The notes below the pieces were generated by a model that saw nothing but the letters and a program-made list of their open reading frames with translations, was not told the origin of the DNA and ran no database searches. A DNA stretch of 64,000 bases from an uncultured Verrucomicrobiae bacterium (lineage in GTDB: Bacteria; Verrucomicrobiota; Verrucomicrobiia; Limisphaerales; Palsa-1400), in contig OY969763.1 in the NCBI GenBank assembly GCA_963702845.1, forward strand, positions 5,376,001 to 5,440,000. Reading direction: 5' to 3'. How positions within the stretch are numbered: the stretch's first letter is position 1; each line of letters starts with the position of its first letter. Below are positions 25,519 through 56,700 of the stretch, piece by piece. Both the position numbers and the translations under genes were made by a program.

Positions 25519-25604
25519 GGTAGGTTACCCAAGTGGCCAACGGGGGCAGACTGTAAATCTGCTGGCTTACGCCTTCGATGGTTCGAATCCATCACCTACC
25601 ACCA
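25519..25604 (+). tRNA. tRNA-Tyr(GTA)
   Basis: Acceptor stem GGTAGGT/ACCTACC, anticodon loop CTGTAAA, long variable arm, TTCGAAT T-loop, encoded CCA. Confidence 0.97.
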
Positions 25605-29956: not shown

Positions 29957-31885
29957 ATGGAAAGCAACCGCCAACCGGAATCCGAAGATAACAAATTGCG
30001 GCAACGGCTCGAGGAGTGCCGGTTGCGGGCGCGTCAATTGGACGCCGCGACCCGTGCTCCCGCCAATCTGCCGCTGATCGACGAGCCGCCTCCGCTGACC
30101 TTGCCGATGCGGAAACCTTTTTTGCCGGGCTCGATTTTAACGACTTTATTCCGCCATCCGAAAAACGGGCGGACTATCATCTTCAAGCCGGATGAGTTGT
30201 CCCAACTGGACAACATGAAGAGCAATTATTTGCTTAAATATTACCAGGACCAGGGTCTGTTCCTGCCTGAAGTCGCGGGCCGTCTGCAAAAGGCGATGGA
30301 CGATTGCGGCGCTCGATTCGGACGTTTCTTGCGCCACGGCGATTGGCGGGCCACCGTGTTTCAATATGATTCCGGCAAAGAAGCGGATCTGTTGCAGGCA
30401 CTGCTTCAGTTGCGTCTTTTGGTGGAATGCATCGAAATCTTAACGCCGCCTCTTCTCACCATCAAACGCCTCGCCGATGAAGAATTCGACCTGATCGATG
30501 ATCTCAACGATTTGACGCGTCTACTTATCTTTTCGTTGTGGGACCGAATCATGGACGGCTGTTCCGAACCGTTAAGCTACGGTTCGCTCGCCTTGTGCAT
30601 CGCCGGAACGAGCCCCAAATCAGCTGACGCTGTCGCCATGTTGGAATCCGGCTATGCGGCGAGCAACGGTGATCCCGAAGCTTTCAAGAGATGGCTGGGT
30701 AAAGGCAATGGCCGCAAAGCCATCGACCAGATCAAAAATATTTTGCGCGAGATAGACAAACACGGCCTCGACGAATTGCTTTCACTGCTCACCCGCCATG
30801 CGCTCGACCTTGGTTTGCAACCAGTGACGATCGAGTTCGCCCAGCAGACGCTGCAAAACGTCATTTCGACGCTTGTTTCCCTGGACGGGGAAACATCCGA
30901 ACCCGAGCGGCGTCGCAGCGCGGTATTGGCCGCACAATTCACGGAAGTTTCACGCCGATATGCGGCAAACTTTTCGGCCGGCAATGCGGATCCGAAAGTC
31001 AGTGAAGAAGATTTAAATGCCATCATGGCAGAATTGGATGCCATGGTGGGCATGGACGCGGTCAAACACGACATTCATCGCGCGACCAGCTTCGCGCGTG
31101 TGCAAATGCTGCGGCGCGAACAAGGGCTGCCGGTCGTCCAGGCCAGTCTTCACAGCGTATTCCTCGGCAACCCGGGCACTGGCAAAACCACTGTCGCCCG
31201 GTTGATGGGACGAATCTATAAATCTCTCGGACTCCTCAAGCGCGGGCATGTCGTCGAATGCGATCGAGGCCGGCTCGTCGCCGAATACGTTGGCCAAACC
31301 GCTGTGCGAACTCACGCAGTCATCGACTCCGCGCTCGATGGTATCCTGTTCATCGATGAAGCCTACAACCTGGCTGGGCGCGGCGAGGAAGATTTCGGTG
31401 GTGAAGCGATCGAAACATTGCTTAAACGGATGGAAGATGACCGTAACCGGTTGATCGTGATCGTGGCCGGTTACCCTGAGTTGATGCAGGAGTTCATCAA
31501 TTCCAATCCAGGGTTGGAATCGAGATTCACCAACTATTTAAAATTCGAGGATTATCGACCCGAGCAATTGCAGGAAATCTTTCGGCGTATGACTGCGCAA
31601 AGCGGCCTGACCTGTTCGCCGGAAGCGGACCGAAAAGTGGTCGAGGTCTGTGCGCGGCTTTATGCGCAGAGAAACGAGCAATTCGGCAACGCCCGCGCCA
31701 TGCGCAACTTCTTCGAGCTGGCCGTCCGAAACCAGAGCATGCGCGTAATCACCAGCGGCCGAACCGATCGCGAGGCCCTGACATTACTGCAACCAGAAGA
31801 CTTGCCCGGCGATGTCGAAATTACGATACCCGGTCCGCTGGAGCGTGAGACACAAAAGTCGAGGATCGCTTCACGGCCGAATTAA
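29957..31885 (+). CDS. CbxX/CfxQ (SpoVK/EccA-like) AAA+ ATPase with unknown N-terminal domain
   Basis: Walker A GNPGTGKT, LVAEYVGQTA, Walker B ILFIDEAY, SNPGLESRF and FGNARAMRN. Confidence 0.92.
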   Translation: MESNRQPESEDNKLRQRLEECRLRARQLDAATRAPANLPLIDEPPPLTLPMRKPFLPGSILTTLFRHPKNGRTIIFKPDELSQLDNMKSNYLLKYYQDQGLFLPEVAGRLQKAMDDCGARFGRFLRHGDWRATVFQYDSGKEADLLQALLQLRLLVECIEILTPPLLTIKRLADEEFDLIDDLNDLTRLLIFSLWDRIMDGCSEPLSYGSLALCIAGTSPKSADAVAMLESGYAASNGDPEAFKRWLGKGNGRKAIDQIKNILREIDKHGLDELLSLLTRHALDLGLQPVTIEFAQQTLQNVISTLVSLDGETSEPERRRSAVLAAQFTEVSRRYAANFSAGNADPKVSEEDLNAIMAELDAMVGMDAVKHDIHRATSFARVQMLRREQGLPVVQASLHSVFLGNPGTGKTTVARLMGRIYKSLGLLKRGHVVECDRGRLVAEYVGQTAVRTHAVIDSALDGILFIDEAYNLAGRGEEDFGGEAIETLLKRMEDDRNRLIVIVAGYPELMQEFINSNPGLESRFTNYLKFEDYRPEQLQEIFRRMTAQSGLTCSPEADRKVVEVCARLYAQRNEQFGNARAMRNFFELAVRNQSMRVITSGRTDREALTLLQPEDLPGDVEITIPGPLERETQKSRIASRPN

Positions 31886-32030: not shown

Positions 32031-33224
32031 CTACCCTTCTACAACTCTCGCCGTCTCGCGGTCATATCGAAAGTTTTCTAAGGTGCCTTCGATGAGTTTG
32101 TCGATTGCTTGTTCGATCGCAGGCAATGGGACAAGAAACCATTCCCTTGGTTCGACTTGGCCACCAAAGCGGTCTTTTAATTCCAAATCCAAACGAGCGC
32201 CTTGGAAAAACTTATGCAGAAGTGCTTCAAGTCGTTTCCGGTTGATATTCGCCAGTTTAAAAGTTGCTACGATTTCCACGTCCGCAAGTAGATATGTAGG
32301 ATCCCGTTTGGCACTACCGACGCGAGTTTTTATATCCGCGCCGGTCACACCAATTTTGTGAATAACCGACCTATGCTCTGCTACGAATGGGTGTTCTGAT
32401 TTGCTTCGCAATACATAGATGTATCCGGTTGGCAGGTCATCGGGTTCCTCGATGCCAGAAAAAAGCGGCCCGAAATCTCGAGGCATGATGCGCCGGCTGG
32501 CTTTGTCCTTGTTTAAAGCACGCTGCAACGAACGAAGGAGAAGGTCGCTTTCGGTAGCATTGTCATAAATGACGCGCAGCCTGCGATCAGGGCGGCCGTA
32601 ATCGGTTACAAAAGGCTCGTCCATTTCAGCAACAACTATCTTTTGCCCATCCAAGATGAAGAGGTCGCCCTTTTTGACTTCGGCGTTGTCCTCGTATTTC
32701 GTTGTTTGTCTCTGTCCTTCTTTGAGCTCGCTTTGAACTTGCTCGAAGATCAGTTGGAAATCGGCGAAGTCTTTGCAGGGATTTCGCTGAGCGATTTCTT
32801 CTGCGGCTTTTATTTCGTCGCGGGGCCGAACGTGTACGAGCTTGGTGACATCATCTTTCGGTTCAACGTCAACGCCGAGCATCGACAGCAAAGCCTCGTC
32901 GGTAGGTTCGTCTTTCAACTGCGCAACGGCATGATCTGCTTCAGCACCAAGCAATCCGCGTGAATCCAACTCTCGTAACACCGCGCGACATTCTGCCGAC
33001 GCGCGAATTTGATCGAGCCGAACAGCGTAAAGACGCTCGAAAATGTCGCGATTTTCTCCATGCTGAGGTACACGCCCATTTTCCTCAATGAATTGAACAA
33101 TTTCCTCATAGCCGGCAATGATGCGCTGTTCTCGGGCAGGCCGCCCGCCGCTCGAAGTGGGTTCGGTATCGACACCAAGTTCGCCTAAAAGGTCCAAGTC
33201 ATCGTCGTTAATACGGTCAGCCAT
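32031..33224 (-). CDS. YeeC-like GIY-YIG (T5orf172-type) nuclease family protein
   Basis: GYIYVLRS...HKIGVT...LEALLHKFF...PREWF. Confidence 0.9.
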   Translation of the reverse strand: MADRINDDDLDLLGELGVDTEPTSSGGRPAREQRIIAGYEEIVQFIEENGRVPQHGENRDIFERLYAVRLDQIRASAECRAVLRELDSRGLLGAEADHAVAQLKDEPTDEALLSMLGVDVEPKDDVTKLVHVRPRDEIKAAEEIAQRNPCKDFADFQLIFEQVQSELKEGQRQTTKYEDNAEVKKGDLFILDGQKIVVAEMDEPFVTDYGRPDRRLRVIYDNATESDLLLRSLQRALNKDKASRRIMPRDFGPLFSGIEEPDDLPTGYIYVLRSKSEHPFVAEHRSVIHKIGVTGADIKTRVGSAKRDPTYLLADVEIVATFKLANINRKRLEALLHKFFQGARLDLELKDRFGGQVEPREWFLVPLPAIEQAIDKLIEGTLENFRYDRETARVVEG

Positions 33225-35417
33225 TTTTTTCTTCCTTCGCTTTCTGTTGTAGGAAAGCCACCCCTTCTGCCATCCTTTTCTCCCATGGATCTTGCGCGGT
33301 TAGCGAAGGCAGCCTGCCCTTTTCCTGCTTGAACCGTAGTGCCCGCTTTGCCAATTCGCGTGCGTCCTCAATCGTTAGGTTAATCCGCCGACCAGCGATG
33401 ACTGCAGCTACCTGTTTTAGGCGTTCTTCAGTCATTGACTTGGCGAGAATGGTGTACGCTTCCCCAAAAGGATTGATGCGGTCGATAAGATCAATGTCAA
33501 GTTCGGTCACAGACAGAGCGAACTTCCGGATACCATCAATCAACGATGTGTTTGGCGACGCCACATTTCCTGACTCAGTCAGCAATTTTTTTGCCTGCTG
33601 AACGATATTTAGAGCAGCGATAGCGTGTTGCCGGACAGCTTCCTGATCTTCATCATTTAGATTTGGGAACTTCTCTTTTACAATTTTCCCCATTCGCAAT
33701 TGCGTCAGTTCCTCTGGAACCAACTCTTCGTCAAACATCCCTCGCTCGATCGCTTGTTTGTCCTGCACAAAAGCAGTAATCAACTCAGTCAAATCCTCGC
33801 GGCAGATGCGCTCTGCCTCCTGGCTTTTTGGCTCGGCAAGGCCTTTAATTTCAAGTTGGATTCGACCCGTGTCGGAGTTAATGCCAACATTACATTTGCT
33901 CGGATCATAACCACCTTCACCGTAATTGAACCCCTCGCTTGGACCGCTGTTCTGGTTTTTTGGCTTGAACTCAAATCGCGGTGCTAATACCTGCTCCATT
34001 AACAGGCTGGCAGCGATCGCCTTCAATGTATCATTGACCGCTTCGGTCACTGCGCCTTCGGTCGCGTCGGGTTCGGCAATAAGATTGGTGAAACGGGCAC
34101 GCGTTTTGCCGGGCGCATCGCGAGTAGTGCGACCTATGATCTGGTACAATTTCGGTGAGGCTCGAGCGATAACCAACGGTGAGGGCGTGTTCGCACCATA
34201 TCCAATCGAAACCCTCCTTAGCCATCCCTAGAGCAATGATAATATCGACGTGGTCTCGATTGTTCTTTTGCGCCGAGTCCTTAAGGGCTGATGAAACCTT
34301 CTCCCGTTTTGAAGGAGTATCATCTACCAAATCCGCGATTTTCAGGATTTTTCCGCTCGCCGTTTTCACGAGCTGAAAACCAGTTTGAGGGTCCGCACCT
34401 TGCCATTCACCAAGTTCCTCGATGATATGCTCAACCTCTCGAATCTTATCTTTTGTGCTCTCCCGAGCGTTGACGTTAGGTATGTGGACAATCGTTTTCT
34501 CGTAAGGGTTTAGAACGTTTAGAATCTCGCTGGTGAAATTGCCCGCGTAAAAATAGTAACCAATGTCAAGCTGCTTCAGGTATTCGTAACCGTTTAGCTG
34601 CTCGTAATAAGTGTAAGTTACCGTATCAAACCTTGATTCGTCATCGGGGTGTAATACCGCTTCGGCGTCCCCACGAAAGTACGAACCGGTCATCGCGACG
34701 ATATGTGTTTTGTCACGCGCCATCAACTGCCGGATGTTTTCACCCAGCCTGTTGTCAGGATTCGCGGAAATATGATGAAATTCGTCCACAGCAATGAGTC
34801 GGTCGTCGAATGCTTCCACGCCAAACCGATCTACGGCAAACCGAAACGTTGCATGAGTGCAAACCAACGTTTTATCTATGGTTTGCAAAAACTTCTGTAC
34901 CGAATCTACCTTTCCGTTGGTATCGGAACCGGGTGCATCGCACAGATTCCACTTCGGTTTGTACTTTCCAATCGGCCCAAAAGCCAAACTGGCTTAACGG
35001 CTCATCGTGGAAGCTGGCCCCAATCGATCTCTCCGGCACAACGATGATCGCCTGCTGCAAGTTTTGGTTTGTAAGCTTATCTAAGGCTACGAACATTAGA
35101 GCCCGGCTTTTTCCTGAAGCTGGAGGTGATTTAATAAGGAGGTACTGTTCGCCGCGCTTTTGCCAAACGCGTTCCTGCATTGGGCGCATTCCCATGGCGT
35201 TGGGTTTTGTCGAGCTACCGTTATGAGCATATTTTACGGTAACGCACGGGATCGATTGTTTACTACGAAAGACCTCACGAGATTGCTCGACATCGCCGGA
35301 TCGCTCGTGGTGACGAGCGAGCAGGTCAGGCAATTCCTTTTCAAACTGATCGCGTATCGTTTGATATTCGGCAGCTTTATCAAGCGAAATATGTTGCTGG
35401 CGGATGATACGTTTCAT
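33217..35417 (-). CDS. YeeB-like SF2 helicase (two frameshifts), as assembled with an N-terminal ~50-aa antitoxin-like extension
   Basis: GMRPMQER, Walker A SPPASGKS, DEFHH, MTGSYFRGD, ALGMAKEGFDW and QIIGRTTRD over ORFs 34872-35417, 34031-34987 and 33217-34176. Confidence 0.88.
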
Positions 35418-35692
35418 GGTCGTTTCTTTCTCGGCACGTCGAAGGCTGTAACGGGATAAATGGTATCGCGGTCGATTTGCTCGTAGGCAACCATCAGGTG
35501 TCGACCCGCGACGGTATCTCCAAAGACGACCGGCCTACCGGAGGACCGGCTAATATCTGTGCCTTTAGGATTCTGCACGGCCTCTTCGACTTCCTCCTTA
35601 GTTATGCAGTGCTTCTTCGCGATATGTTGCACGTTTCCATTTGGGTCGTCGTCGCGGTCCCAAAGTATGCAATTGAAGTTCGGCCAGCTCAT
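35414..35692 (-). CDS. BrnT/RelE-like toxin (putative ribonuclease)
   Basis: 92 aa with WD...NVQHIAKKHCITKEEVEEA...FGDTVAGRHLMVAY...YPVTAF pattern; 4-bp ATGA overlaps on both sides. Confidence 0.75.
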   Translation of the reverse strand: MSWPNFNCILWDRDDDPNGNVQHIAKKHCITKEEVEEAVQNPKGTDISRSSGRPVVFGDTVAGRHLMVAYEQIDRDTIYPVTAFDVPRKKRP

Positions 35693-38460
35693 TCGACGCA
35701 GCCTTTCGTGTTGCCACCGGTGCCTTTTTTAACTGGCTCCGTCCGCGAAGTCATCTGCGTGTAAAGTTCAAAAAGTTTTTCAAGTCGCTCAGTGTCATTC
35801 TTAAAACGACGACCGATATAGATTCGTTCTAAAGTCTCATCGGTCCGTTGGTGTGCTTCGCACAAGTTTAACGGCATCGTCTCACCGTCGTAAAGTTCGG
35901 CTATTGTTGCCGGGAAATGAGACTCGCGTGCTAACAGGATTTCTTCGGCGCACCGTGTTAATTCTGCTTTGTTTCGCTCGGTAAGCATGGGAACCGGGAA
36001 AGTGTTCCAACCCAATGTATTCGAATACGAAAACCGCATTTCCAATCTTACGCAAACTGTACCAATCCAAACCCAATGGAGGCGGGACGCAACGAGCGCC
36101 ATTGTCCAAAGAGGTTGATCATACAATGCAAAGCACTTGTTCGAAACTACACTATCGTTTCTGAAGAGATCGACCGGCAGAACATCCCGATTCTCGGACG
36201 ATACAACAGGGATAGCTAGCAGGTGACGCTCACTTCGGTTCATTTCGCGGAACTGATGCAGGCGTTTAACCATGCCGTTTGACATTGCGTCCTTGGAGTT
36301 TGCGCGTTCCTTCGCACCACTTAGTAGACGCGCCCGAATGTCTGCGATCGCGACCACGTGGGGCTCGGGCTCGTTCTCGAACCAGAGACAGTAACGCGGT
36401 CTCCCGTTGATTACTTCGGTGGATCCATAGAAGCGTTTCACGTATTCTTTAGGAAAACCCGATTGAAGGTATCTATTTCTTTCGTTTTGGCTCAGCAACA
36501 GGTGTGCCGAAAGTCCATAATAGTTGCCTTTAACCATCGCAGGCACAGCCGAAATCGGCCGGCTTGCCGACGTGACCCAATGATTCGGCTGCGGCAGCAG
36601 GTAGGCATTTATGTTTTCGGCTTCTACCTTGAGATCACCATCAAAAATGATGGCCTTTCCTGTCTTAAATGCCGCGCCAATCACTACGACCGTCACACCG
36701 GCATCGTGCGCAGCCAGATTGCTCCACTTGAACGAACGCACGGCAAAAACAAACCTCAATCCACGATTAAAAAGTGGCAGCCAAAAATTCGAAACGTGCT
36801 GCCCTTGACAAATGCTATTCGTCGCGACAAATGCGAATTGAGCAGAGCTAAGTGCAGCGAACTCATACGCCTTGTAAAACCAGCCGCAAACGTAATCAAG
36901 CAGTCCCCATTTTTCCACCTTGCCCGCGAAGAGCCGCCGAAGGTCTTCTTTCTGTTGCAGCGATTTTCGCGCGTTTCCCTTGTACGGGGGGTTGCCGCAA
37001 ATGTAAATTTCTCCACCTTCGTTTTGAAACTGAATTTCGGCCTGGTCTAATGGTGTATTGAATAGATCATCGCCTTGGAGTTTCACCACCTTGCCTTCCG
37101 GTCGGCATACACTGACCCAATCAAGGCGCAGTGCGTTTCCACACGTAATCCAGTTCGCAGCTTCCAACGGCAGAAATTCGGCAAGAGCTAGTTTTTGCCC
37201 ACGATAAAGTACGTCACATTGATACTCGGCAATAATTAGCGCGAGGCGCGCGATTTCGGCGGGAAAGTCCCGAAGTTCGATACCGCGAAAATTCGTAAGT
37301 GGTATTTCGGATGAGTGTTCCAGTTCATTGCGGCGCCGATTGATTTCCGCTTCAATTTCTCGCATTGCCTTGTATGCGATAACAAGGAAATTGCCCGAGC
37401 CACACGCTGGATCGAAAACGCGGATTCGAGAAAGGCGCTGGCGAACGTTGAGAAGCTTGCGCGGATTGTCTCCTGCTTCCTGCAGTTTCGCCCGAAGATC
37501 ATCTAGGAAAAGCGGGTTTAGAACCTTGAGTATATTGGGGACACTTGTGTAATGCATGCCCAGCGCACCGCGTTCCTCATCGTCGGCGACGGCTTGGATC
37601 ATGGAGCCGAAAATATCCGGATTGATTTTTGTCCAGTCTAACCCACCAACGTGAAGAAGATATGAGCGCGCGATCTTGCTGAATCGAGGAACGTCGAGGG
37701 AGCCCGAAAAAAGGCCGCCATTTACGTACGGAAATAAGTTCGCCCAACTACGGATTTTGGCCGACTCGCGATCCGTAAGCTTGGTGTTCATCGAGCGAAA
37801 TAACTCGGCGATTACCTCATGTGTGTTGGAGGAATCCCTCGCGCTCATTTGATCGATCGTGGCTGTAAACAGGCCCTTTCCGTGAAAGATGTCAGTGTCT
37901 TCGGCAAAGAAGCAGAAGATGAGTCGCGCCATAAAATGATTCATGTCATGACGGCGTTGCTCAGTGCCCCAATCTGGATTGTCCTTGAGCAACTCAATGT
38001 AAAGGCGGTTCAGGCGGCCGGTGGCCTTGATGTCAAACGCGTTTTCCCGAATCTGTTTAACCGTGGTAATTCCAGCGAGCGTTAAGAAGAAGCCGAAATG
38101 GTCGGAAAAGTCGGCGTAAGCACAGGCAACGGTTTCGCCGTCGCCTACGTTTTCGGCCTCGAAGGTTTTGCCATCGGTCGCGAGGATGAATTTCGCCTTC
38201 TGACGGATAGTTGCGGGGCTTTGTCGCAGCGCCCCGAGCGTGGCGGTCACTTCACCTTCAGCGCAAACTTTAATGTGTATGTTATTCCGTTGAAGAATCG
38301 CTCCAGGCAAGTCGGACTGATTTGAGTTCCCGCTGCGCAGGCGTTTGATTGTCGTATCCTTGTTTCCAAATGCCTCAAGAAAGGCGTACGGAAAGTTGGC
38401 TGCGTCAAAGGGCGCTGCGGCAAGGTTTGAAACTGCTTCTTCGATCTCAACTGCGTTCAT
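35689..38460 (-). CDS. MmeI-family / DnmA(YeeA)-like N6-adenine DNA methyltransferase with target-recognition domain
   Basis: RLIFCFFAEDT, FPYVNGGLF, GMHYTS, motif I FDPACGSGNF, motif IV GNPPY, YSNTLGWNTFP. Confidence 0.93.
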   Translation of the reverse strand: MNAVEIEEAVSNLAAAPFDAANFPYAFLEAFGNKDTTIKRLRSGNSNQSDLPGAILQRNNIHIKVCAEGEVTATLGALRQSPATIRQKAKFILATDGKTFEAENVGDGETVACAYADFSDHFGFFLTLAGITTVKQIRENAFDIKATGRLNRLYIELLKDNPDWGTEQRRHDMNHFMARLIFCFFAEDTDIFHGKGLFTATIDQMSARDSSNTHEVIAELFRSMNTKLTDRESAKIRSWANLFPYVNGGLFSGSLDVPRFSKIARSYLLHVGGLDWTKINPDIFGSMIQAVADDEERGALGMHYTSVPNILKVLNPLFLDDLRAKLQEAGDNPRKLLNVRQRLSRIRVFDPACGSGNFLVIAYKAMREIEAEINRRRNELEHSSEIPLTNFRGIELRDFPAEIARLALIIAEYQCDVLYRGQKLALAEFLPLEAANWITCGNALRLDWVSVCRPEGKVVKLQGDDLFNTPLDQAEIQFQNEGGEIYICGNPPYKGNARKSLQQKEDLRRLFAGKVEKWGLLDYVCGWFYKAYEFAALSSAQFAFVATNSICQGQHVSNFWLPLFNRGLRFVFAVRSFKWSNLAAHDAGVTVVVIGAAFKTGKAIIFDGDLKVEAENINAYLLPQPNHWVTSASRPISAVPAMVKGNYYGLSAHLLLSQNERNRYLQSGFPKEYVKRFYGSTEVINGRPRYCLWFENEPEPHVVAIADIRARLLSGAKERANSKDAMSNGMVKRLHQFREMNRSERHLLAIPVVSSENRDVLPVDLFRNDSVVSNKCFALYDQPLWTMALVASRLHWVWIGTVCVRLEMRFSYSNTLGWNTFPVPMLTERNKAELTRCAEEILLARESHFPATIAELYDGETMPLNLCEAHQRTDETLERIYIGRRFKNDTERLEKLFELYTQMTSRTEPVKKGTGGNTKGCVE

Positions 38461-39165: not shown

Positions 39166-42100
39166 TCACCGGCGCGTGGCTGCCAACTGCGCATCGAGAC
39201 GTTTAGATGAAACGGAAATTGCGGTGCCGAGCTCTTGCGCGAACAGAGAGACTTTATACTCCTCGACCATCCAACGATAAGTGTTGAGTTGGGTGCGCTG
39301 TTCGGTGGACCGGATTGGTTCCGCTTCAAGCTGTTTCAACGCTTCGACATAAGGCGCGAGTTGGCGCAATCGCTCCTGATTCTTAACTGGATTCAAGGCG
39401 GCGCGCTCAGCTCGAATCAGGAGCGCTTTGAGATAACGAGGCAAGTGCGTCAATCGTTCGTAATCGATTCGTTCCAGAAAACGCGATGGCATGAGATGAG
39501 TCAATTCATCGGTCAGCGGATTCACGCCCGCTGGACTCACGCCCGTTGGACCGGCAGCTCCAATTTGGCTGAAGGATGAAAGCGTCTGAGCACGTGGCTT
39601 CGTTATGGGAACGGACGCGCCAATTTTTTGTTGTACTTGTTGTCGCAATTGCAGAATCGGCCCGAGACGATCGATGAATTGCTGGGCAAGTCCGGGCAGC
39701 CGTTCTCGCGCAGCGGCGACGGCGGCTTGAAAATCTTTTTGGGTCAATGCGGCTAATGGTTCTGCCGGCAAAAGATAATGCTTCAGATGTTCCAGTGCAG
39801 TTTCGCGCAACTCCTCACTATCGCCCAGCGGCGCATAAAGCGCGTCGTAACGAGCCAAGGCGCGCAAATCTTTTTCCAACCACGCAAGATCTTTTTGAAT
39901 GGCGAGTTCAACAAGACGTTGCGTTCCGAGCAGACTCGAGTTTCGCGCAAGATCGGCGCTGCGAAACAAACGCAGGTTCACCACTCCTTCTGCGAATTCC
40001 AATCCCGGCCACGCGTAGAGAGGGAGGCCCGACCCTTCGCTGACCGTGATGCGTTCAGGCAAATCGCCGCACGTCCATTCCGTAACGCCAAAGCGTTCCC
40101 ATTTCTCAGCGGCACGCGTCCAATCTGCCGAGTCGGATTTCGGCGACGGCTCGGTTTTGGCTTGCTGGAGATTTCGTTGCAGTTGCGCGAGGTCGCGTCC
40201 GCTGCCGAGCGATTTGCGATTGTGATCGAGAATGTCGATGCGCGGTCGCAGGTGCGCCGGCAAGGCATTGGCAGGCCATGCCGAAACTGGAACTTCCACG
40301 CCATAACGCTTGTGAATAAAGCTGGCGAGATCCTGGAGAAACGAATTTCCCGACGGCTGAAAGTCGCTGACGATCTCGGAGACCTTCGGCGGAAAGGGCA
40401 TCAACTGCTTTCGAATCGCCTTTGGAAGTGCGCGTAAAAGTTCGCCGATCATTTCTTCGCGCAAACCGGGCACGGCCCACTCGATCAACGAAGCCGAAGT
40501 GGACTGCGCAATGGCGAAAGGTAATTCGATCGTCACGCCATCATGTTCTTCGCCTGGAGCATACGCATAAGCGAGCGGTACTGGCTGGCCTCCGATCGGC
40601 ACCACTTCGGGAAAAGCGTTCGCATCGAATTGCAACGTTTCGCCGCCGGCTAAATCAGCTTCAGAAATACAGAGACGTTCTTGCGCACCGGGTTCGCGCA
40701 AGAAACGGTTCAGGTCGTGAATCGAAGAAACGTTCTCGAGATGCTTCGCGTAAAACTCACTCAACACCTGGTCGAAATCACCGAGGTCATACTTACGAAC
40801 GCGCGTGCGCCAGTTCTCGATCTTTTCGCGAATGCTGCGGTTGTGAGCGAGAAAATTATATTGAGGCGGCAACTCTGGTTTGTTCTCCGCCGTCGGAGTG
40901 AGAATGCGAACTTCATCGCGGTCGGCGTCGCGCTCATCGCTTTGTCGAGCGCGCGAAGGAAATAAACTCTCCTCCACCAAAGCGGAGCGAATGAAAATTG
41001 CGGTGGCTTCTTTCGCGTTGATATTCCCGTAGGCAACTTTGCGACGCTGCACTTCCAATCCGTGCAACGTGATGATTTCTTCAACGAGCACATTTCCGGC
41101 AATTGGCGTTCCAATGCGGATTCTGGTGCGTGACTTTGCAGCAATGCGGTGCGAGTTGAAAAATCCATTGCGGATCAATGCCCGCCAAAGTGCGCGCAAA
41201 CAGTTGTGACGTTTCCACAATTTCCCCAGCGACAATCCATTGAGGCTGATTGGATTTTGGTTTCGGCGGCGGCTTGGTGCCTTTGGTGATTTGTTTTTTC
41301 TGCGGCTCGCCGCGCGAATAAAGAGCCGAACCAGGAAACACGGAGACCATGCGGTTGCCCGCCGCCTTGTAATTGTTGCGCTCTTCGAAACGCGCGACGT
41401 GGCCGATCAGTCCGGCGAGAATCGAGCGATGGATCGCGTCGTAAGCGGCGTTGCTCTCGTTCAGCTTGAACGTGCCGAGATCCTCGAGCGCATCGTGCAA
41501 TTGGGAATAAACGTCCTGCCATTCGCGCATCCGCAAGTAGGAAAGAAATGTTGGCTTGCAGAATTTGCGACGCTGGCCTTGCGTGCGCAGACGATCCCAC
41601 TGGTCATGAACGGCGTTCCAAATATTGAGCAGCGAAAGAAAATCCGATTGTGGATCGGTGAACTTTTGTGCGCGGCGGCGGCAGCCTCTTTTTGGTCGAG
41701 CGGACGTTCGCGGGGATCTTGAATGCTCAAACCGGCGGCGATGATCAATAATTCCGCGTCGCGTGTTCGTGCTGCGATTGGAGCAACATGCGGCCAAGCG
41801 TGGGATCAATCGGAAGCCGCGCGAGGTCTTCGCCGAGACGCGTGAGTGCGCGATGTGCATCCAGCGCGCCGAGTTCCTGCAAGCAGCGCATAGCCATTTG
41901 CAATCGCAGCGGGCGCGGGCGGTTGGACGAACGGAAATGTTTCGATGTCGCCGAGATGAAACGCTTTCATCCGCAGAATGACTTCCGCGAGATTGGCGCG
42001 TTGAATTTCCGGCTGCGTGAATGCGGGACGCGCGTTGAAATCCTCCTCGGAATAAAGCCGAATACAAACGCCGTCCTCGACGCGTCCGGCGCGACCTTTT

Positions 42101-43287
42101 CGTTGGTTCGCGCTGCTCTGCGAAACGGGCTCCACGGGCAAACGTTTCGTGCGCGTTCGCGGGTTGTAACGACTGATGCGCGCAAGTCCGGCGTCAATGA
42201 CATAACGGATTCCCGGAATGGTCAGCGATGTTTCCGCGATGTTCGTGGCGATAACAATTTTGCGTCGCGATGAAGGAGCGAAAACACGTTGTTGATCTCC
42301 CGCGCTGAGCCGGCCGAACAACGGAATCACCTCCGCTTCACCGGAAAAACGCCCTTCGAGTTGATCGCCGGTTTCGCGAATGTCGCGTTCCCCCGGCATG
42401 AAAATCAGCACGTCGCCGGAACTGATCTCATAAAGTATGCGCTCGGCTGCTTGCACTGCAGCATCCACGTAACTCATATCCCCGCGTTCCTCGGAGACGG
42501 CGTCGAGCGGTTGATACTGAACTTCGACGGGATAAAGCCGTCCGGAAACTTCGATGATCGGCGCGTCGCCGAAATGGCGCGAAAACATCTCCGTATCAAT
42601 CGTCGCCGAGGTGATGATCAGTTTTAAATCGTGACGGCGCGCCAGCAAGCCTTTCAAGTGGCCGAGCAGGAAATCGATGTTCAAACTGCGCTCGTGCGCT
42701 TCATCAATAATGATCGCGTTGTATTCCGAGAGATCAGGATCGCCCTGCGTTTCGGCGAGCAAAATTCCATCGGTCATCAGCTTGATATAAGTTTGCGCAC
42801 TGGACCGATCATCGAAACGGATTTTGCATCCGACTTCACGACCCCAACTGACGTTCAATTCTTCCGCAATACGTCGCGAAATAGAAAGCGCGGCGACGCG
42901 ACGCGGTTGGGTGCAACCAATTTTCGCTTCGATGCCCAACCCGGCTTCGAGACACATCTTGGGAATCTGCGTGGTCTTTCCTGAACCCGTTTCACCAGCA
43001 ATAACGACCACTTGATGCGCCCGAATCGCGGCAACGATTTCATCTTTCCGAGGAGTGATCGGAAGATCCGGCGGATACGTCACTCGCGGAACCTTGAGCC
43101 GACGCTCTTCGCGCAAAGCGATGGAGGTGCGAACTTGTTGGAGCAATCGATCCAACAACGCATCGCGCTGACCCGGATGATGTCGATCGCGCAGCAATCG
43201 TCCGACCCGCCGACCGAGTCGAACCCAGTCGGGCAAGAGACATTGCGGTAGCAGCTTTTTTAGTTCTTCGATTCGAGCGTCAACCAT
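39166..43287 (-). CDS. hrpA: ATP-dependent RNA helicase HrpA (frameshifted at 41.1-41.9 kb)
   Basis: [35 protein letters not shown] and QRKGRAGR; C-terminal [18 protein letters not shown]. Confidence 0.96.
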
Positions 43288-50745: not shown

Positions 50746-53700
50746 TTATGGCGCGGCTTGAAACATGACGCGTCCGTTATCGTTGGTGCCGGGGAAGTAA
50801 CCCGCACCGAGGTTGGCCTTCTGCAAGACTGCTCCGCCGAAGGTCGTGCGATGGGTCGTGCCGGGTTCAACGAATGTTCCGCTGAACATTCCGCTGGAGA
50901 GCGTGAAGTAGAGCGTCACTTTGTTGATGCCGGCGCTGGTGACTTTGCTTCCGCTGCCGAGGGTGACGTCATTGTCCGAGGCTTCGGACAAGTTTCCTCC
51001 GCTGAGGCTGACGACACCGTTGGTGATGTTGAGCACGCGAGTGGCCAGGCCAATCGGCGCGACGTAACGGGAACCGGTTGATTCGGCGTCGGTCGCAAAA
51101 CCGGCGGCGAAGAGTCGGCTCGTGGCAACGGCGGGACGGATCCAGCTCAGTCGGCCGGAGACGTCGTCGCTGGTGCGGTTGGTGAATGTCAACCAACCCA
51201 ACAGTGAACCGCGTCCGGCATACAGCGAGACATAGACCGGCCATTCACCATTTTTGGAGATGGCTGAGGATTGCGAGACGTGTGTGCCGTCGGCGAGTGT
51301 TCCTGTGAGGAGCACTGTGCCATTAGCGTTGACTGTGACTGCGGCGTAGCCGTCGCCTTGACGTGAGACGGTCTTGCCGACATTGCCAGGGATGACGACG
51401 GTGTATTTTCCGGCCTGCAGTGCCGGCTGGGTGCGTGCATCGAAGGTGCCGCGATCGCCAGCGAGTAATGAGACCCATTTACCGTCGCTGACCGTGCCGG
51501 AGATGCTGTCGGAATTATCCAACGCAACATTCCAGTTGGCGGCGAGTGCAGTGGCGCCGGGGCGTGTGACGGAGCTGTTGCCAGTTCCATCAACGTTCAA
51601 GCGGCCGCTGGTGACGTAGCGTTTGCCTTCAGAGGAGAGCGCTGCGGTGTAAGCACCCTGGTCGCTGAGGACGAGAGTGAATGCGCCGGAGTTGGCGTTT
51701 TCGACTGAGGCCGCTCCCATGAACAGGCCGTTGAACGTGCCTTTGGCGCGGAGGAACGGATTAGGCACGAAGTTCGCGGTGATATAGACCCCGCCTTGCA
51801 TCGTGAAGGTCAGCACAGTTTGGCTGGAAGCTCCTGGGACACCTGTCCAGCTTGCCAACACCTGGCCTGTGCCAGGTTTCGCTGTGAGCGTGTAGGTCTT
51901 GCCGATCTGGAGGAATTGTCCGTCCAGGTTTGGAGTGACTGTTCCAATGCCGGTCGTGAAGAGGCGGAATTGGGCGAGCGTGATGGCTTTGATCGGACCG
52001 GCGCAATTGGCGGAGGCGACGGCTGTGCGTCCCTGGCAAGTGTCAGTGCCGCGGGCAGTGATGACTTCCGTTGCAGGATGCGTTGCCAATGTCATCGTAT
52101 AACTACCGCTGAAGTCCTCTGATTCACCGGGCGCGAGTTCGATCGGCCCGAGCAAGACAGTGTTCGTAACGGGGTAGCTGCTAACAACATAGACGTTGGT
52201 CAGGACGATATTGCCGGTGTTAGTGACCGAACCGGTGAACGCATACAAGCCGCCGAGAGGCACTGTGCCGGACGGACAGTTCTTGAACACTGCAATGAGC
52301 GGTGTCGTGAGCAACGGACATTCAGCGGACGAGGTCGCGGACACTGTGTCGCCTGAGCAACGGTCCTGGCCGGTGGCGGTGAGCGTGTCAACAATCTGGC
52401 AGCAGCAGAGCGGAGCTGTGTAAGTGTTACTGAAGCTTGCCGTGCCACCAGGAACGAGCGTGATAGGTCCGATAACCGGCGTATTGTTCGTCGGCATATC
52501 GTCAACCACGAACACGTTGGTGAGCGTTACATTTCCAGTATTGGTCACAGTGCCAGTGAATGTATAAGGCGCGCCGCGCGGAGTCGGGAACTGCGGGCAG
52601 TTCTTGATGACTGCGATTGCAGGGAGCGTCGCTTTGACAGGGCAGGTCGTCGTCACGCTATTGGAAACAGCGGATTGCGAGCATGCGTCGAATCCGATGG
52701 CAGTGACAGTGTCGTTGCCGCAGAAGTCTGCGATAACCGTGTAGGAACCGGTGTATTCAACGACTTCTCCCGGTGCGAGGGTGATGGGGCCGAACACGCG
52801 GGTGTTGTTGCGAGGCTGGGTGTTCACGATGGTCACGTTGACCAGGGTGATGTCGCCGGAGTTACTGACGCTGCCGCTATAGTGCAACACATCGCCAGGA
52901 TTGGTGATCGTTGGAGGACATTGTTTCGTAACAACGATTGCGGGCGTCGTGAGCACCGGACACGTTTTCGTATCGGTGTCGCTAACGATCATTCCGGTGC
53001 AAGGCACAACGCCTGTTGCGGTTGCCGTGCTGGACTGCGAGCAGCAGTTCAACGGCACATGATAGCTGCCGCTGAAGGTTGCGCTTGCGCCAGGGGCGAG
53101 GATGGGAACCGTCAGGATCGGCGCGGAGCCGCTGCGGTTATTGTAGACGAGGACGTTCGTCAGTGTGACGGTGCCGTCATTGGCCACGATGCCGGTGTAA
53201 TTCATTATACCACCGGGGCTCGGCGCGGTTGCGGGGCAGAACTGGGTGACTTCGATGCTCGGAAGTCCGCCGGTGACGGGGCAAGTGGTCGTTGCGGAGT
53301 TGCTTGCGATCGTGCCGTTACAATCGGCGCCGGTCGCAGTCGCGGTCGTAGTGACGGAGCAAGCTTCCGGAGGGACAACATAGGTTCCGACGAAGTTCGC
53401 TGTGGCGTTCGGCGCGAGTGAAGCGATCGTCGTTACCGGCGAACTGCCGGTGCGGTCGGTAGTCACGACGATGTTGGTGATTGTGACGTTACCGGTGTTT
53501 TTGACGCTGCCGGTAAATGCTAACGGGCTGCCTCCGCCGACCGGGACTGTCGAGCAGTTCAGGTTAACGACCAGGCGTGGATTCGTTGTGAGTGGGCAAG
53601 TTGCCGACGCTGTGTTTGTGATCGAACGCGAGGTGCAAACATCCGTGCCTCGGGCACTGACCGTGCTCGTGACGGAGCAGGAATTAGCCGGCGCAGTGAA

Positions 53701-56700
53701 CGTCGCGGTGAAGTTCGCGGATGCTCCGATGGCCAAATTCGCAACCGTGAGCACGGTGCTCGGCGACGCTTGAGTATCGGTGACGACCACGTTGTTCAAC
53801 GCGATATTGCCGGTATTGCTGACTGTGCCCGTGTAGGTGATCGAACCACCGGTCGACGCTTGTATCGCGGGACAATTCAACGAGACCGCAAGAGCCGGCG
53901 CTGTTGTCAGCGGACAGGTATTGGTGATCTTGTTTGTGACGTTGTTGCCGCTGCAAGTGTCGGTCGCAGTAATCGTGGCGATCGAGGTGACACTGCAAGT
54001 ATTGGTGATGGCGACAATGAAACTGCCGGTGAAGTTGGTGGACGCTCCAGGGGCGAGCGTTGGCGTTGTAAACACCGGTTGCTGCGCACCGTTTCCGCTG
54101 AGGAAGTAGAACAAGTTCGGGCCGAAACCGACGTCGGTCGCGGTAAACGTCAATTCATTCAGATTGTTTCCGATGGTAACGCGATCAGTGACGACGCCTG
54201 CACCGGTGATTGTCCCGAGCGTTGAATGGCCTGTGCCGTCATGGCGCAGGTAGTAGAACTGGTTGACGCCGAATCCGACATCAGTCACCGAGAACATTAA
54301 TGCGTCTGAATTGTTGGCGACCTGGAAACGATCGGTGATCGTGCCAGGTAGAGCGGGGTTGATCGTGCCGAAGAACGAACGTCCTGTGCTGTCATGGCGC
54401 AAGTAGTAGAACAAGTTGGCTCCATAACCAACGTCCGGAGCTGAGAATGTCAGGGCATCAAAGTTATTACCGAGCACAAACAAATCGGCAACCGTGCCAA
54501 CCACACCACCGGGTTTGATGACACCGAAACTGGACAGGCCAGAGCTGTCATGGCTGATGTAGTAGAAGTTCACCGGTCCATATCCGACATCGGGCGCGGC
54601 GAAGGTGAGGGCATCGAAGGCCTTAACGCCGAGATCAAATCGGGCAGTCACCGTTGCATTGGCATTGATGGTGACGAATGTTGAATTTCCCGACAATTCG
54701 CGGCGAATCGCATAGAACTGTGTCGCTCCGTAGCCTTCGTCCTGACCAGCGAAGGTCAATCCGGTGAAGTTGTTACCGACACCGAAACGGTCGGTGAGAA
54801 TACCAGCGGCGGAAAGTGTCCCGAAGGTGGAGGGGCCGCTATTGACGTTAAGCTGCGGTTGGTTATTCACCACGACGATGTTGCTCAAGGTGATGTTGCC
54901 GGCGTTGCTGATCGAGCCGGTGTAGGTGAGAATGCCGCCAGGCCCTGTGGGGTCGATCGGACAATTCTGCGTGATGACGATGGCCGGTGCGCTGATGAGC
55001 GGGCAAGTGATGGCCGCGGTGGCAATCAGGTTTTGGCCGCCGCATTGGTCGGTGGCGCGGGCGGTGACAGAGGTGTCGCTGGAACAAGCGTCGGTGCGCG
55101 CAACAGTGTAACTATTGGTGAATCGTGCGCTCCCGCCGACGGCGATGCTGGTTGCCGAGAAGATAACGGTGCCGGGCGCAGGCGTATCACGCGTTACGGT
55201 GACATTCGTCAGTGTAAGGCTTCCGGTATTGTTCACAACGCCGGTGTAAGTGAGAGTTCCGCCGAGCGCAGTCGCGCTGGTAGGACAGGTCAACGAGACG
55301 GCCAATGATGAATTGCCGGAAACCGAGCAAGTCGAAGTCACCGAAGCAGCGACATTCGCGCCGCTGCATTTGTTGTTGGCGTTCGCGGTAAGCGTTGAAG
55401 TAATTCCGCAGGCGCTGGTCAATGGGACGGTGTAGCTGCCGGTGAAATTGCGGGTTGCGCCGGGAGCGAGCGTCGCTGTCGTGAAAACCGGTGTTGAACC
55501 AGTGCGATCATTCGTCACAACAACGTTCGTCAAGGTGATCGTGCCTGCGTTGCTGACAGTACCGGTATAGGTAAGCGTTCCGCCCAAAGTCGCGGGAATG
55601 GCAGGGCAGTTTTCAGTTACGACCAAGCGCGGCGTATTCAGCAGCGGGCACGTCGTAGACGCGCTGTTGGTCACGATCGCAGATGTGCAATTATCGCTGC
55701 CGGTCGCAATAACCGTGCTGCTCACTGAGCAACTATCCGCAGGCGTGGTGAAAGTGGCGGTGAAAGCAGCTGAAGCTCCGGCCGCAAGGCTCGGTACGGT
55801 GAGGACGGTGCTCGGAGAGGCTTGGTTGTCGATAACGATGACGTTGTTCAACGTGACGTTACCCGTGTTATTGACGGTTCCAGTGTAGGTGATCGAACCG
55901 CCGCTGGTCGCAGTGGTCGCGGGACAAACCAACGAGACTGAAATCGCCGGTGTAGTGAGAACCGGGCAGATGGTCGTTGTGCTGTTGGTGACTGCGTTAA
56001 GAGTGCAAATATCGCGCGCGGTTCCTTTGAACGTCGTGCTAATCGAGCAACTATTCGCTGGAACAGAATAGGTTCCGGTGAAATTGGCGGACGCGCCAGG
56101 GGCGAGTGTGTTGACGGTGAAGACCGTTGTGTTTGGTGATGGGCGATCGCTCACTACGAGCACGTTGGTCAACGTAATGTTTCCAGCATTCTGGACCGTG
56201 CCGCTATAGGTTACGGAACCGCCGGATAAGACTGGCGTCCCGGGGCAATTCGCTGTCACGACGATCTGCGGTGTGGTCAAAATTGGGCAGGTCGTTGTCG
56301 CCGAGTTTGCGACAAGCACACCGCAAACGCTGCGAGCCGTCGCAGTCGAGGTGCTGGTGCTGGAGCAATTGGTTGGGGCCAAATAGCTGCCGGTGAAATT
56401 CGTAGTCGCGCCGGGTGCCAGGGTGGCCACGGTGAGGAGAGGCGTTGATCCGGTTTGATTGTTGAGAACAACGACGTTAGTGACGGTGATGTTGCCTGAA
56501 TTGCTGACTGAACCTGTGTAAGTCAGGACTGAACCGGGAGTTGCCGGGTTCGCGGGACAAAGCTGGGTGACGACAATGCTCGGCGTGCTACCCAAGGGGC
56601 AGGTGGCGGAGGCAACATTGCTGACGGGGTTGGCGGTGCAGGCGTCGCTACCGTTGGCTGTGACATTGGCGGTTACTGTGCAACCAGTGGCTGGGGCAGT

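Follow-up and report, generated by a model that had tools for sequence, protein, structure and literature searches.

A BrnT-like toxin gene and a putative antitoxin segment fused to the YeeB helicase recur together in yeeABC operons

The locus described here raises the question of what a small toxin-like gene does between the methyltransferase and helicase genes of a restriction-type operon. It lies in a 64,000-nucleotide stretch of a contig from an uncultured Verrucomicrobiae bacterium (OY969763.1, positions 5,376,001 to 5,440,000; hereafter, the window), where four minus-strand genes at 32031-38460 follow one another in the order yeeA, a 92-amino-acid (aa) toxin open reading frame (ORF), the yeeB helicase gene and yeeC. 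Reading the letters directly, we recovered the gene order and all three overlaps that an initial annotation of this DNA had described: ATGA at 35689-35692 (yeeA/toxin), ATGA at 35414-35417 (toxin/yeeB) and an 8-bp overlap, ATGGCTGA, at 33217-33224 (yeeB/yeeC). That annotation had also proposed an embedded toxin-antitoxin (TA) module. The pair is present in the operon, but its antitoxin is reduced to a putative toxin-binding segment fused to the helicase. From the comparison of sequences, we consider it very probable that the module originated as a TA pair, was fused to YeeB, lost its regulatory elements, and recurs across loci under purifying selection.

A separate antitoxin gene is absent from the window; the antitoxin-like segment is formed by the first 39 codons of the helicase ORF (35301-35417, minus strand), fused in frame. 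These residues match the N-terminus of a helix-turn-helix (HTH) protein of about 112 aa that follows stand-alone homologues of the toxin, and tblastn found no second copy of the segment in the 6.03-Mb genome. Among 59 toxin loci from GTDB, 47 had a downstream XRE-HTH antitoxin, mostly of 110-122 aa, one had a truncated antitoxin, and ten had no detected adjoining antitoxin (contig ends, frameshifts or distant homologues). The remaining locus, L008, from a Chthoniobacterales metagenome-assembled genome, shares the layout of the window. The cognate antitoxin of the stand-alone relatives is an HTH_3/XRE protein, not the ribbon-helix-helix BrnA, and the BrnT-like/XRE pair seems to be an uncharacterised TA family.

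The embedded order, yeeA-toxin-[segment::YeeB], was found in eight loci for which DNA was available (the window, L008 and six metagenome loci). In all eight the HTH is missing and the YeeB core begins instead after a linker, which in the window comprises codons 40-55 (16 residues; 35253-35300, minus strand). The linker is 12-17 aa long and in frame in 18 of 18 fused proteins. Mean pairwise identity across segment residues 1-39 was 71% in these 18 fused N-termini and 66% in 36 stand-alone antitoxins, whereas across residues 40-52 it was 18.5% and 50%, respectively. The same measures in seven loci chosen by their toxin alone were 72% for the segment and 15% for residues 40-52. Predicted local distance difference test scores (pLDDT) were low (segment, 38-70) in a full-length model of the fused homologue P0127, and neither the window nor the L102 copy has an in-frame ATG, GTG or TTG in the linker. 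Annotation can conceal such a fusion: in the NCBI record of the L008 helicase (MBA3832287.1, 681 aa) the start is placed at codon 48, leaving the toxin apparently orphan.

The initial annotation had hinted that about 50 residues at the N-terminus of the downstream product act as the antidote, an idea that is backed by the stand-alone antitoxin match, by segment conservation and by a model of the complex. The toxin modelled with YeeB residues 1-52 scored 0.70, compared to 0.02 for the best of three controls, and the interface fell in residues 1-40. Three runs shared at least 93% of contacts, with a partner pLDDT of at least 74. The mark against which such scores were calibrated was reached by 116 of 157 solved pairs and by two of 215 mismatched pairs. 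In the model, the segment is predicted to bind the toxin across its beta-sheet face, like the N-terminus of HigA2 on HigB2.

The toxin ORF itself (35414-35692, minus strand) belongs to an operon-associated subclade of a family with 618 homologues, many labelled DUF497/BrnT, and we found good agreement with the BrnT/RelE-type fold that had been claimed for it. Its AlphaFold (AF2) model (pLDDT 87.9) gave as the top two of 48,161 chains 7vd7_A (Z 8.8, root-mean-square deviation 2.9 over 82 aligned residues) and BrnT 3u97 (Z 8.3, 2.5 over 74), with the third-best chain at only Z 6.2. Foldseek again ranked 7vd7_A and 3u97 first (E = 2.9e-3 and 7.8e-3), with no match at E ≤ 0.001, and hhalign of the toxin family profile against a canonical BrnT-type protein, which itself matches 7vd7_A at E = 1e-7, gave a probability of 96.7. 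A sequence search of the PDB with the toxin profile returned nothing meaningful. The window's toxin falls below the gathering cut-off of Pfam BrnT PF04365 (17.9 vs 34.5 bits), and 43 of 45 family members match that model at E ≤ 0.01 (best 2.3e-7). These 45 sequences, the window plus 44 of 65 toxin loci (L103 and loci whose ORF was truncated or broken were not used), share invariant W11-D12, N20, E36, R53 and G58; in the alignment to the canonical protein, R53 and H28 fall on its R and H, and the W-D, N and E positions are also kept. Residues required for Brucella abortus BrnT activity are reported as D6, E7, K9, R41 and E78 (PMC5086665), a numbering that our alignment does not transfer. By its modelled fold, the toxin is a putative RNase.

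Recurrence in yeeABC loci, the outcome on which the initial annotation had staked its proposal, was borne out in the eight loci with DNA, six of which were retrieved by the toxin alone. Specifically, a DNA pattern for the start of the toxin subclade, blind to neighbouring genes, identified the six metagenome loci, and six of six had the embedded, fused layout. Every subclade toxin with DNA context (8/8) thus lies between yeeA and yeeB. Protein searches added 12 full-length fused YeeB proteins of 728-745 aa from NCBI, JGI, ENA and Logan (P0121-P0123, P0125 and P0127-P0134), and distinct fused N-termini numbered 18. The ATGA overlap at the toxin stop is present in 8/8 embedded loci, its ATG lying two codons upstream of MKRI in L103 and L105, and the yeeA/toxin ATGA overlap in 7/8. 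In the exception, an element of about 280 bp made of repeated, partly palindromic units (L104:462-741) splits yeeA from the toxin and leaves the toxin/fusion overlap intact. Across the eight loci, the ratio of nonsynonymous to synonymous polymorphism (pN/pS) was 0.29 for the toxin, 0.33 for the segment, 0.69 for the linker and 0.12 for the helicase core.

Stand-alone pairs share a strongly conserved promoter (TTGAC...TATAAT) whose -10 box lies under a 20-bp palindromic operator (e.g. L043:5925-5995). Using a motif derived from the stand-alone loci themselves, we found this palindromic -10/operator within 150 bp upstream, at no more than five mismatches, in 33 of 38 stand-alone loci versus 0 of 8 embedded loci; the window's genome held no match to the operator motif within four mismatches. 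The pairs that share the promoter and operator, which lie upstream of the toxins in L001-L053, are mostly from Planctomycetota and Acidobacteriota. As judged from these comparisons, every autoregulatory part has been lost from the embedded form, and what is kept is the toxin plus the segment predicted to bind it. In a toxin tree from which L059 was left out, one branch (Shimodaira-Hasegawa-like approximate likelihood ratio support, 99) parted seven embedded toxins from 37 stand-alone ones, and 35 toxins of unknown context, picked for a similar N-terminus, fell on the embedded side. Toxin distances tracked segment distances (Mantel rho 0.67, p = 0.0005) over 12 pairs, four of them paired only by equal source-sequence lengths, and tracked helicase-core distances more weakly (rho 0.37).

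On the mechanism that we favour, the operon took up a type II TA pair at the yeeA/yeeB junction; the pair lost its promoter, its operator and the antitoxin HTH, and kept the toxin along with the 39-residue segment as the YeeB N-terminus. Through the ATGA overlaps, toxin and antitoxin::YeeB would be made in fixed proportion from the operon mRNA, parking on the helicase an RNase that would be kept silent only as long as YeeB continues to be produced with its exposed N-terminus intact. The trigger could be a phage that shuts off host expression, remodels the YeeABC complex, or induces proteolysis of YeeB or of the disordered linker; toxin set free in this way would cut RNA and halt the infected cell. 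The result would be a back-up abortive layer behind methylation-based restriction that also makes the operon addictive, and the module would be one of many cassettes exchanged at the junction. That the toxin is released as such a layer when YeeB is lost, cleaved or remodelled in an infection is a tentative proposal, a serious possibility that stops short of probable. We regard as doubtful the stricter version, in which the physical state of the helicase (binding of a phage inhibitor, ATP- or DNA-driven remodelling, or proteolysis) directly gates the RNase.

The embedded module would show how a selfish TA pair can evolve into an effector coupled to a system: the pair inserts at a defence hotspot, sheds its promoter, operator and HTH, and keeps of its antitoxin just the putative toxin-binding segment, now carried by a defence enzyme. 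Were gating true, it would be a chaperone-free, HTH-free TA system whose antitoxin is the defence enzyme itself, and it would report, as a built-in live/dead signal, on whatever switches YeeABC on or disables it. If the coupling is real, toxin release could serve as a selectable signal of phage proteins or DNA states acting on YeeB, and as an entry to the YeeABC mechanism, for which natural fused and unfused near-orthologues of YeeB (70-76% identical) are ready controls.

Surveying the interval between yeeA and yeeB, as the initial annotation had proposed, revealed a wide range of unrelated genes inserted at the junction. A yeeB match was present in 20 of 401 genomes of the host's phylum. We fetched 17 of the 19 such genomes other than the host's own (two on short contigs were omitted); 16 carried a full yeeABC, and L123, without yeeA or yeeC, was excluded. 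Inserts at these junctions include YhcG, Schlafen, RhuM, KilA-N, Hachiman, SIR2-HerA, a Drt8-like reverse transcriptase (RT), a KwaB-like gene and PDC-M19. Such cargo marks the yeeA/yeeB junction as a defence hotspot that recruits defence genes (Hachiman, SIR2-HerA, the Drt8-like RT, the KwaB-like gene and PDC-M19), a point in favour of the mechanism proposed above.

A number of observations weigh against the tripwire proposed above. Unrelated inserts occupy 15 of the 16 other junctions and none of the 16 has the toxin-segment pair, so an embedded gene is the norm at this site. Fused YeeB is also rare in genome samples: it occurs in one (the host's own) of the 20 yeeB-positive genomes of the phylum, in one (again its own) of three yeeB-positive genomes among 401 of the host's order, and in one of 11 among 301 genomes of the order of L008. 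A YeeB tree with 12 more unfused sequences required six label changes between fused and unfused, two of them forced by well-supported branches, and monophyly of fused YeeB was borderline rejected (approximately unbiased test, p = 0.050 with all 12 fused proteins and 0.029 without P0134). Since the hotspot inserts vary and fused and unfused YeeB are interspersed, the module is, on sequence grounds, evidently optional and repeatedly lost or swapped, and YeeB would not need it; the same two facts weaken the idea of an obligate, PrrC-like guard. The structural evidence has its own limits. The alignments behind the complex model were made by us, mostly from stand-alone pairs, and likeness to solved TA complexes may have helped it pass. 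A model of full-length fused YeeB (predicted template modelling score 0.39, too weak to place the segment) contained no confident segment-helicase contact. Six of the eight embedded loci have an in-frame ATG, GTG or TTG in the linker that could yield an unfused YeeB, and the terminal ISAR of canonical BrnT-type proteins is VTA(Y/F) in the toxin family, so that the arginine is missing. Two of the loci are themselves imperfect, as the window's yeeB contains two +1 frameshifts (tblastn junctions near 34960 and 34143) and the L008 yeeA (L008:3219-6004) is frameshifted as assembled (285 + 643 aa) on a contig that is low-coverage by its name. Elsewhere, the tails behind the segment in the best 150 of 510 representatives comprised 68 other, 47 short, 31 HTH and four YeeB, and read-through fusions of the segment must arise easily, because it precedes so many unrelated tails. 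Finally, a Pez TA system beside Hachiman is reported to have only tuned expression and not itself to have defended (PMC13064477).

Several of these points would be expected if the module were ordinary hotspot cargo, with a deletion that removed the HTH and the stop codon and left the segment on YeeB by accident. The toxin and segment would then persist as a self-contained TA unit, sensing for example transcription shut-off, with the helicase an inert carrier. The 15 of 16 junctions with other inserts, the interspersion of fused and unfused YeeB, the unrelated tails, the lack of a confident segment-helicase contact in the full-length model, and the closer tracking of toxin distance with the segment than with the helicase core all fit this account, yet we hold it to be rather unlikely. 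Linker length varies from 12 to 17 aa with the frame kept and no stop in 18/18 fusions; 12 of these were found as full-length proteins, a sample biased to that result, but the six loci found by toxin alone are unbiased in this respect and all are fused. A free antitoxin of 40-55 aa with a separately started YeeB was seen in 0/8 embedded loci, and YeeB is the sole repeated non-HTH partner that we recognised among the best 150 of 510 representatives. A different account grants the fusion a function but no role in infection: the toxin would enforce both retention and sustained expression of a costly restriction-like operon, whose loss or silencing would deplete antitoxin::YeeB and kill the cell. 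The operon is patchy (yeeB in 20/401 genomes), its GC content is below that of the genome (0.502 vs 0.54), and its loss of autoregulation leaves control of the toxin wholly dependent on operon expression; in B. subtilis, TA genes beside the locus have been proposed to maintain it (PMC9973331). Against this, the module is repeatedly lost or replaced, and a frameshift past codon 39, such as those in the window's assembly, would kill the helicase and spare the antidote, such that the fusion would guard yeeB integrity poorly. Addiction by itself is thus an improbable explanation.

It is far less probable still that the toxin is inactive or the fusion mis-assembled in a decaying pseudo-operon, a view that the two yeeB frameshifts here (compared to two frameshifted among 31 other genes sampled across the genome), the sub-threshold Pfam score and the missing ISAR arginine might otherwise encourage. 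For the family, it is largely refuted. Independent assemblies from NCBI, JGI, ENA and Logan contain the same fusion, toxin and segment are under purifying selection, and Y/F replaces the arginine throughout the family, in stand-alone pairs as well. Indels are also not special to yeeB, because the hrpA-type helicase gene (DUF3418) that adjoins the operon (39166-43287, minus strand) has six single-base gaps against a 94.5%-identical relative, between 41100 and 41883. In G002, whose contig ends inside hrpA, the frame is open (1355 aa), and the hrpA indels are likely assembly errors.

The frameshifts divide the window's helicase gene, which spans 35417 down to 33217, among three frames of 181, 318 and 319 aa. 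Aligned with P0121-P0123, the three pieces run end to end (70-76% identity to P0121), and yeeB is intact in L008 and L102. The window's assembly is a single 6.03-Mb contig, 89.8% complete. Both frameshifts lie directly 3' of GTAC (34961-34964 and 34144-34147), the most depleted 4-mer in the genome (observed/expected 0.41), of which the 6.5 kb of the operon contains 13 sites, compared to 0.69 per kb genome-wide. This pattern suggests that GTAC is a methylated restriction site and that the operon is of foreign origin. The idea that GTAC generally causes frameshifts was rejected, as only two of 15 junctions contain it, both in yeeB. The frameshifts in the window probably reflect base-calling error; if they are real, this copy would make a 181-aa product that still carries the antidote. 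The helicase core (33217-35252, minus strand), assigned to superfamily 2 (SF2) from its motifs (Walker A ASGKS, DEFH and QIIGR) and its alignment to intact homologues, gave fold matches to DEAD-box, RadD and HsdR helicases in a low-confidence model.

The initial annotation equated the methyltransferase-helicase-GIY-YIG trio with dnmA(yeeA)-yeeB-yeeC, and Pfam domains, gene order and a published group of MmeI homologues agree with it. The "second group" of those homologues has the layout matched here (PMC2731913), and the likeness extends to a nuclease-less MmeI-like methyltransferase, an SF2 helicase and a T5orf172/GIY-YIG protein in the same order (PMC2731913, PMC9973331, 10.1101/2021.05.05.442762). 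The toxin gene between yeeA and yeeB and the antitoxin-derived extension of YeeB (about 55 aa) go unmentioned in the portions of those papers on which we draw. As to the claim that the defence role of this system is unsettled, yeeAB had no reported phage phenotype in B. subtilis (PMC9973331), but in Vibrio crassostreae its deletion restored phage sensitivity and yeeAB is reported to protect against some phages (10.1101/2021.05.05.442762).

Each part of the module likewise has known relatives. The toxin shares its fold and toxin-first order with BrnT/BrnA (B. abortus 3U97) and the Salmonella toxin 7VD7, and its W-D, H, E and central R have aligned counterparts in a canonical BrnT-type protein; it differs in its low identity (12-18%), its sub-threshold Pfam score, VTA(Y/F) in place of ISAR, and a cognate antitoxin that is XRE-HTH rather than ribbon-helix-helix and, in the embedded form, has no DNA-binding domain. 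The stand-alone relatives resemble Vibrio cholerae HigBA2, a toxin-first RelE-superfamily pair with an N-terminal neutralising segment and a C-terminal HTH, in which HigA2 peptide 3-22 alone neutralises HigB2 (PMC5416850). In fold searches, however, our toxin is nearer BrnT than HigB2, and in the embedded form a helicase of about 680 aa replaces the HTH, with neither promoter nor operator left. PrrC (EcoprrI) and Ronin (RonA with HsdMS) are effectors held by restriction-modification (R-M) subunits and released by known phage anti-restriction triggers (10.1101/2023.04.06.535777). As there, a putative toxic effector gene lies inside a restriction-type operon, and the effector is modelled here as binding YeeB 1-40; restraint is exerted there by native R-M subunits, whereas here it would be by a captured type II antitoxin segment on the motor subunit of a system in which the module is optional. 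Pez-Ham (PMC13064477) and ptuXYZ (PMC11980606) are likewise defence operons that have co-opted a TA pair or a RelE-type RNase. Pez still has its regulator and works through repression of expression, a mode of action that would be impossible here without the HTH, and PtuZ adjoins an ATPase and a DUF262 protein, with no antitoxin-helicase fusion described in the sections of that source cited here, whose list of TA gene fusions likewise mentions no helicase. Full-text literature searches, which took in few subscription journals and no supplements, found no account of an antitoxin segment joined to YeeB or to any restriction helicase. The part families are all known; the architecture appears to be undescribed.

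The yeeA/dnmA gene (35689-38460, minus strand) encodes a predicted 923-aa MmeI-like N6-adenine methyltransferase with a target-recognition domain. Five Pfam domains (MmeI_N, _hel, _Mtase, _TRD and _C) score above their cut-offs, motif I (FDPACGSGNF) and motif IV (GNPPY) are found at residues 349 and 489, and a motif search of the first 130 aa found no PD-ExK nuclease motif. A PADLOC check, suggested in the initial annotation, matched YeeA to the type IIG model (E = 1e-260), but no model exists for the toxin or YeeB. Identity to the L102 homologue is 75-84% over residues 1-500 and 801-900 and 20-43% over residues 501-800. Downstream, yeeC (32031-33224, minus strand) encodes a predicted 397-aa T5orf172/GIY-YIG-type nuclease (T5orf172, E = 1.5e-12; MUG113, E = 2.8e-12) that is 66% identical to its L008 homologue; such a gene also follows the helicase in L102. 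Scans of the locus for promoters, terminators and repeats gave nothing above chance and no clear insertion boundaries.

Beyond the operon, a CbbX/SpoVK-like AAA ATPase gene with an unannotated N-terminal region of about 340 aa lies convergent with it (29957-31885, plus strand) and has homologues in two of five relatives searched. A tRNA-Tyr (25519-25604, plus strand) lies about 6.4 kb from the operon end, and a 2538-aa ORF with a signal-peptide-like start occupies 50746-58362 (minus strand).

The junctions of L107-L122 are a source of candidate defence genes. Their cargo includes Hachiman plus YhcG (L120), SIR2-HerA (L119), a Drt8-like RT (L122), a KwaB-like gene (L117) and PDC-M19 plus HEPN (L121). 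The L110 and L112 junctions each carry a second type IIG-like methyltransferase with a 228-236-aa partner of unassigned family, and unannotated ORFs of 134 aa (L113) and of 466 and 330 aa (L117) are also present. With regard to the spread of the module, a search of 401 Planctomycetota genomes gave no match at E ≤ 1e-20, a threshold at which a positive control was lacking. The toxin had no match in plasmids, and plasmid YeeBs covered at most 74% of the fused N-terminus query, none from residue 1. A first YeeB tree grouped 11 of 12 fused proteins in a single clade that also contained one unfused protein; the single origin of the fusion at which it hinted, and which the smaller set did not reject, was dropped after the 12 unfused YeeB sequences were added. 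P0134 is a divergent fused YeeB on a long branch, 64% identical to P0127 and with the same segment, that may be an early branch or an independent fusion.

The segment also heads many unrelated singleton proteins (P0137-P0286), some with phage-type tails such as a methyltransferase (P0242) or an RNA ligase (P0270), and it occurs as free peptides of 54-60 aa (P0279 and P0262). These singletons are possibly phage antitoxin mimics or read-through artefacts. Phage-borne mimics, an idea prompted by the varied tails, were unsupported by the viral scans: segment scans of IMG/VR yielded no confirmed locus and 0 pattern matches, with one spurious match to a phage head-morphogenesis-like ORF; the GenBank phage set gave no match; the fused N-terminus, run against viral sequences, retrieved only a single spurious locus; and just five of 39 tailed proteins matched PHROGs. 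A viral scan with the toxin identified 12 loci, 11 of which were weak matches. The other, on a viral contig (L125:2950-3566), is a clear toxin-HTH pair, in which a more distant toxin homologue is followed by an HTH antitoxin-like ORF beside a ParB-like gene.

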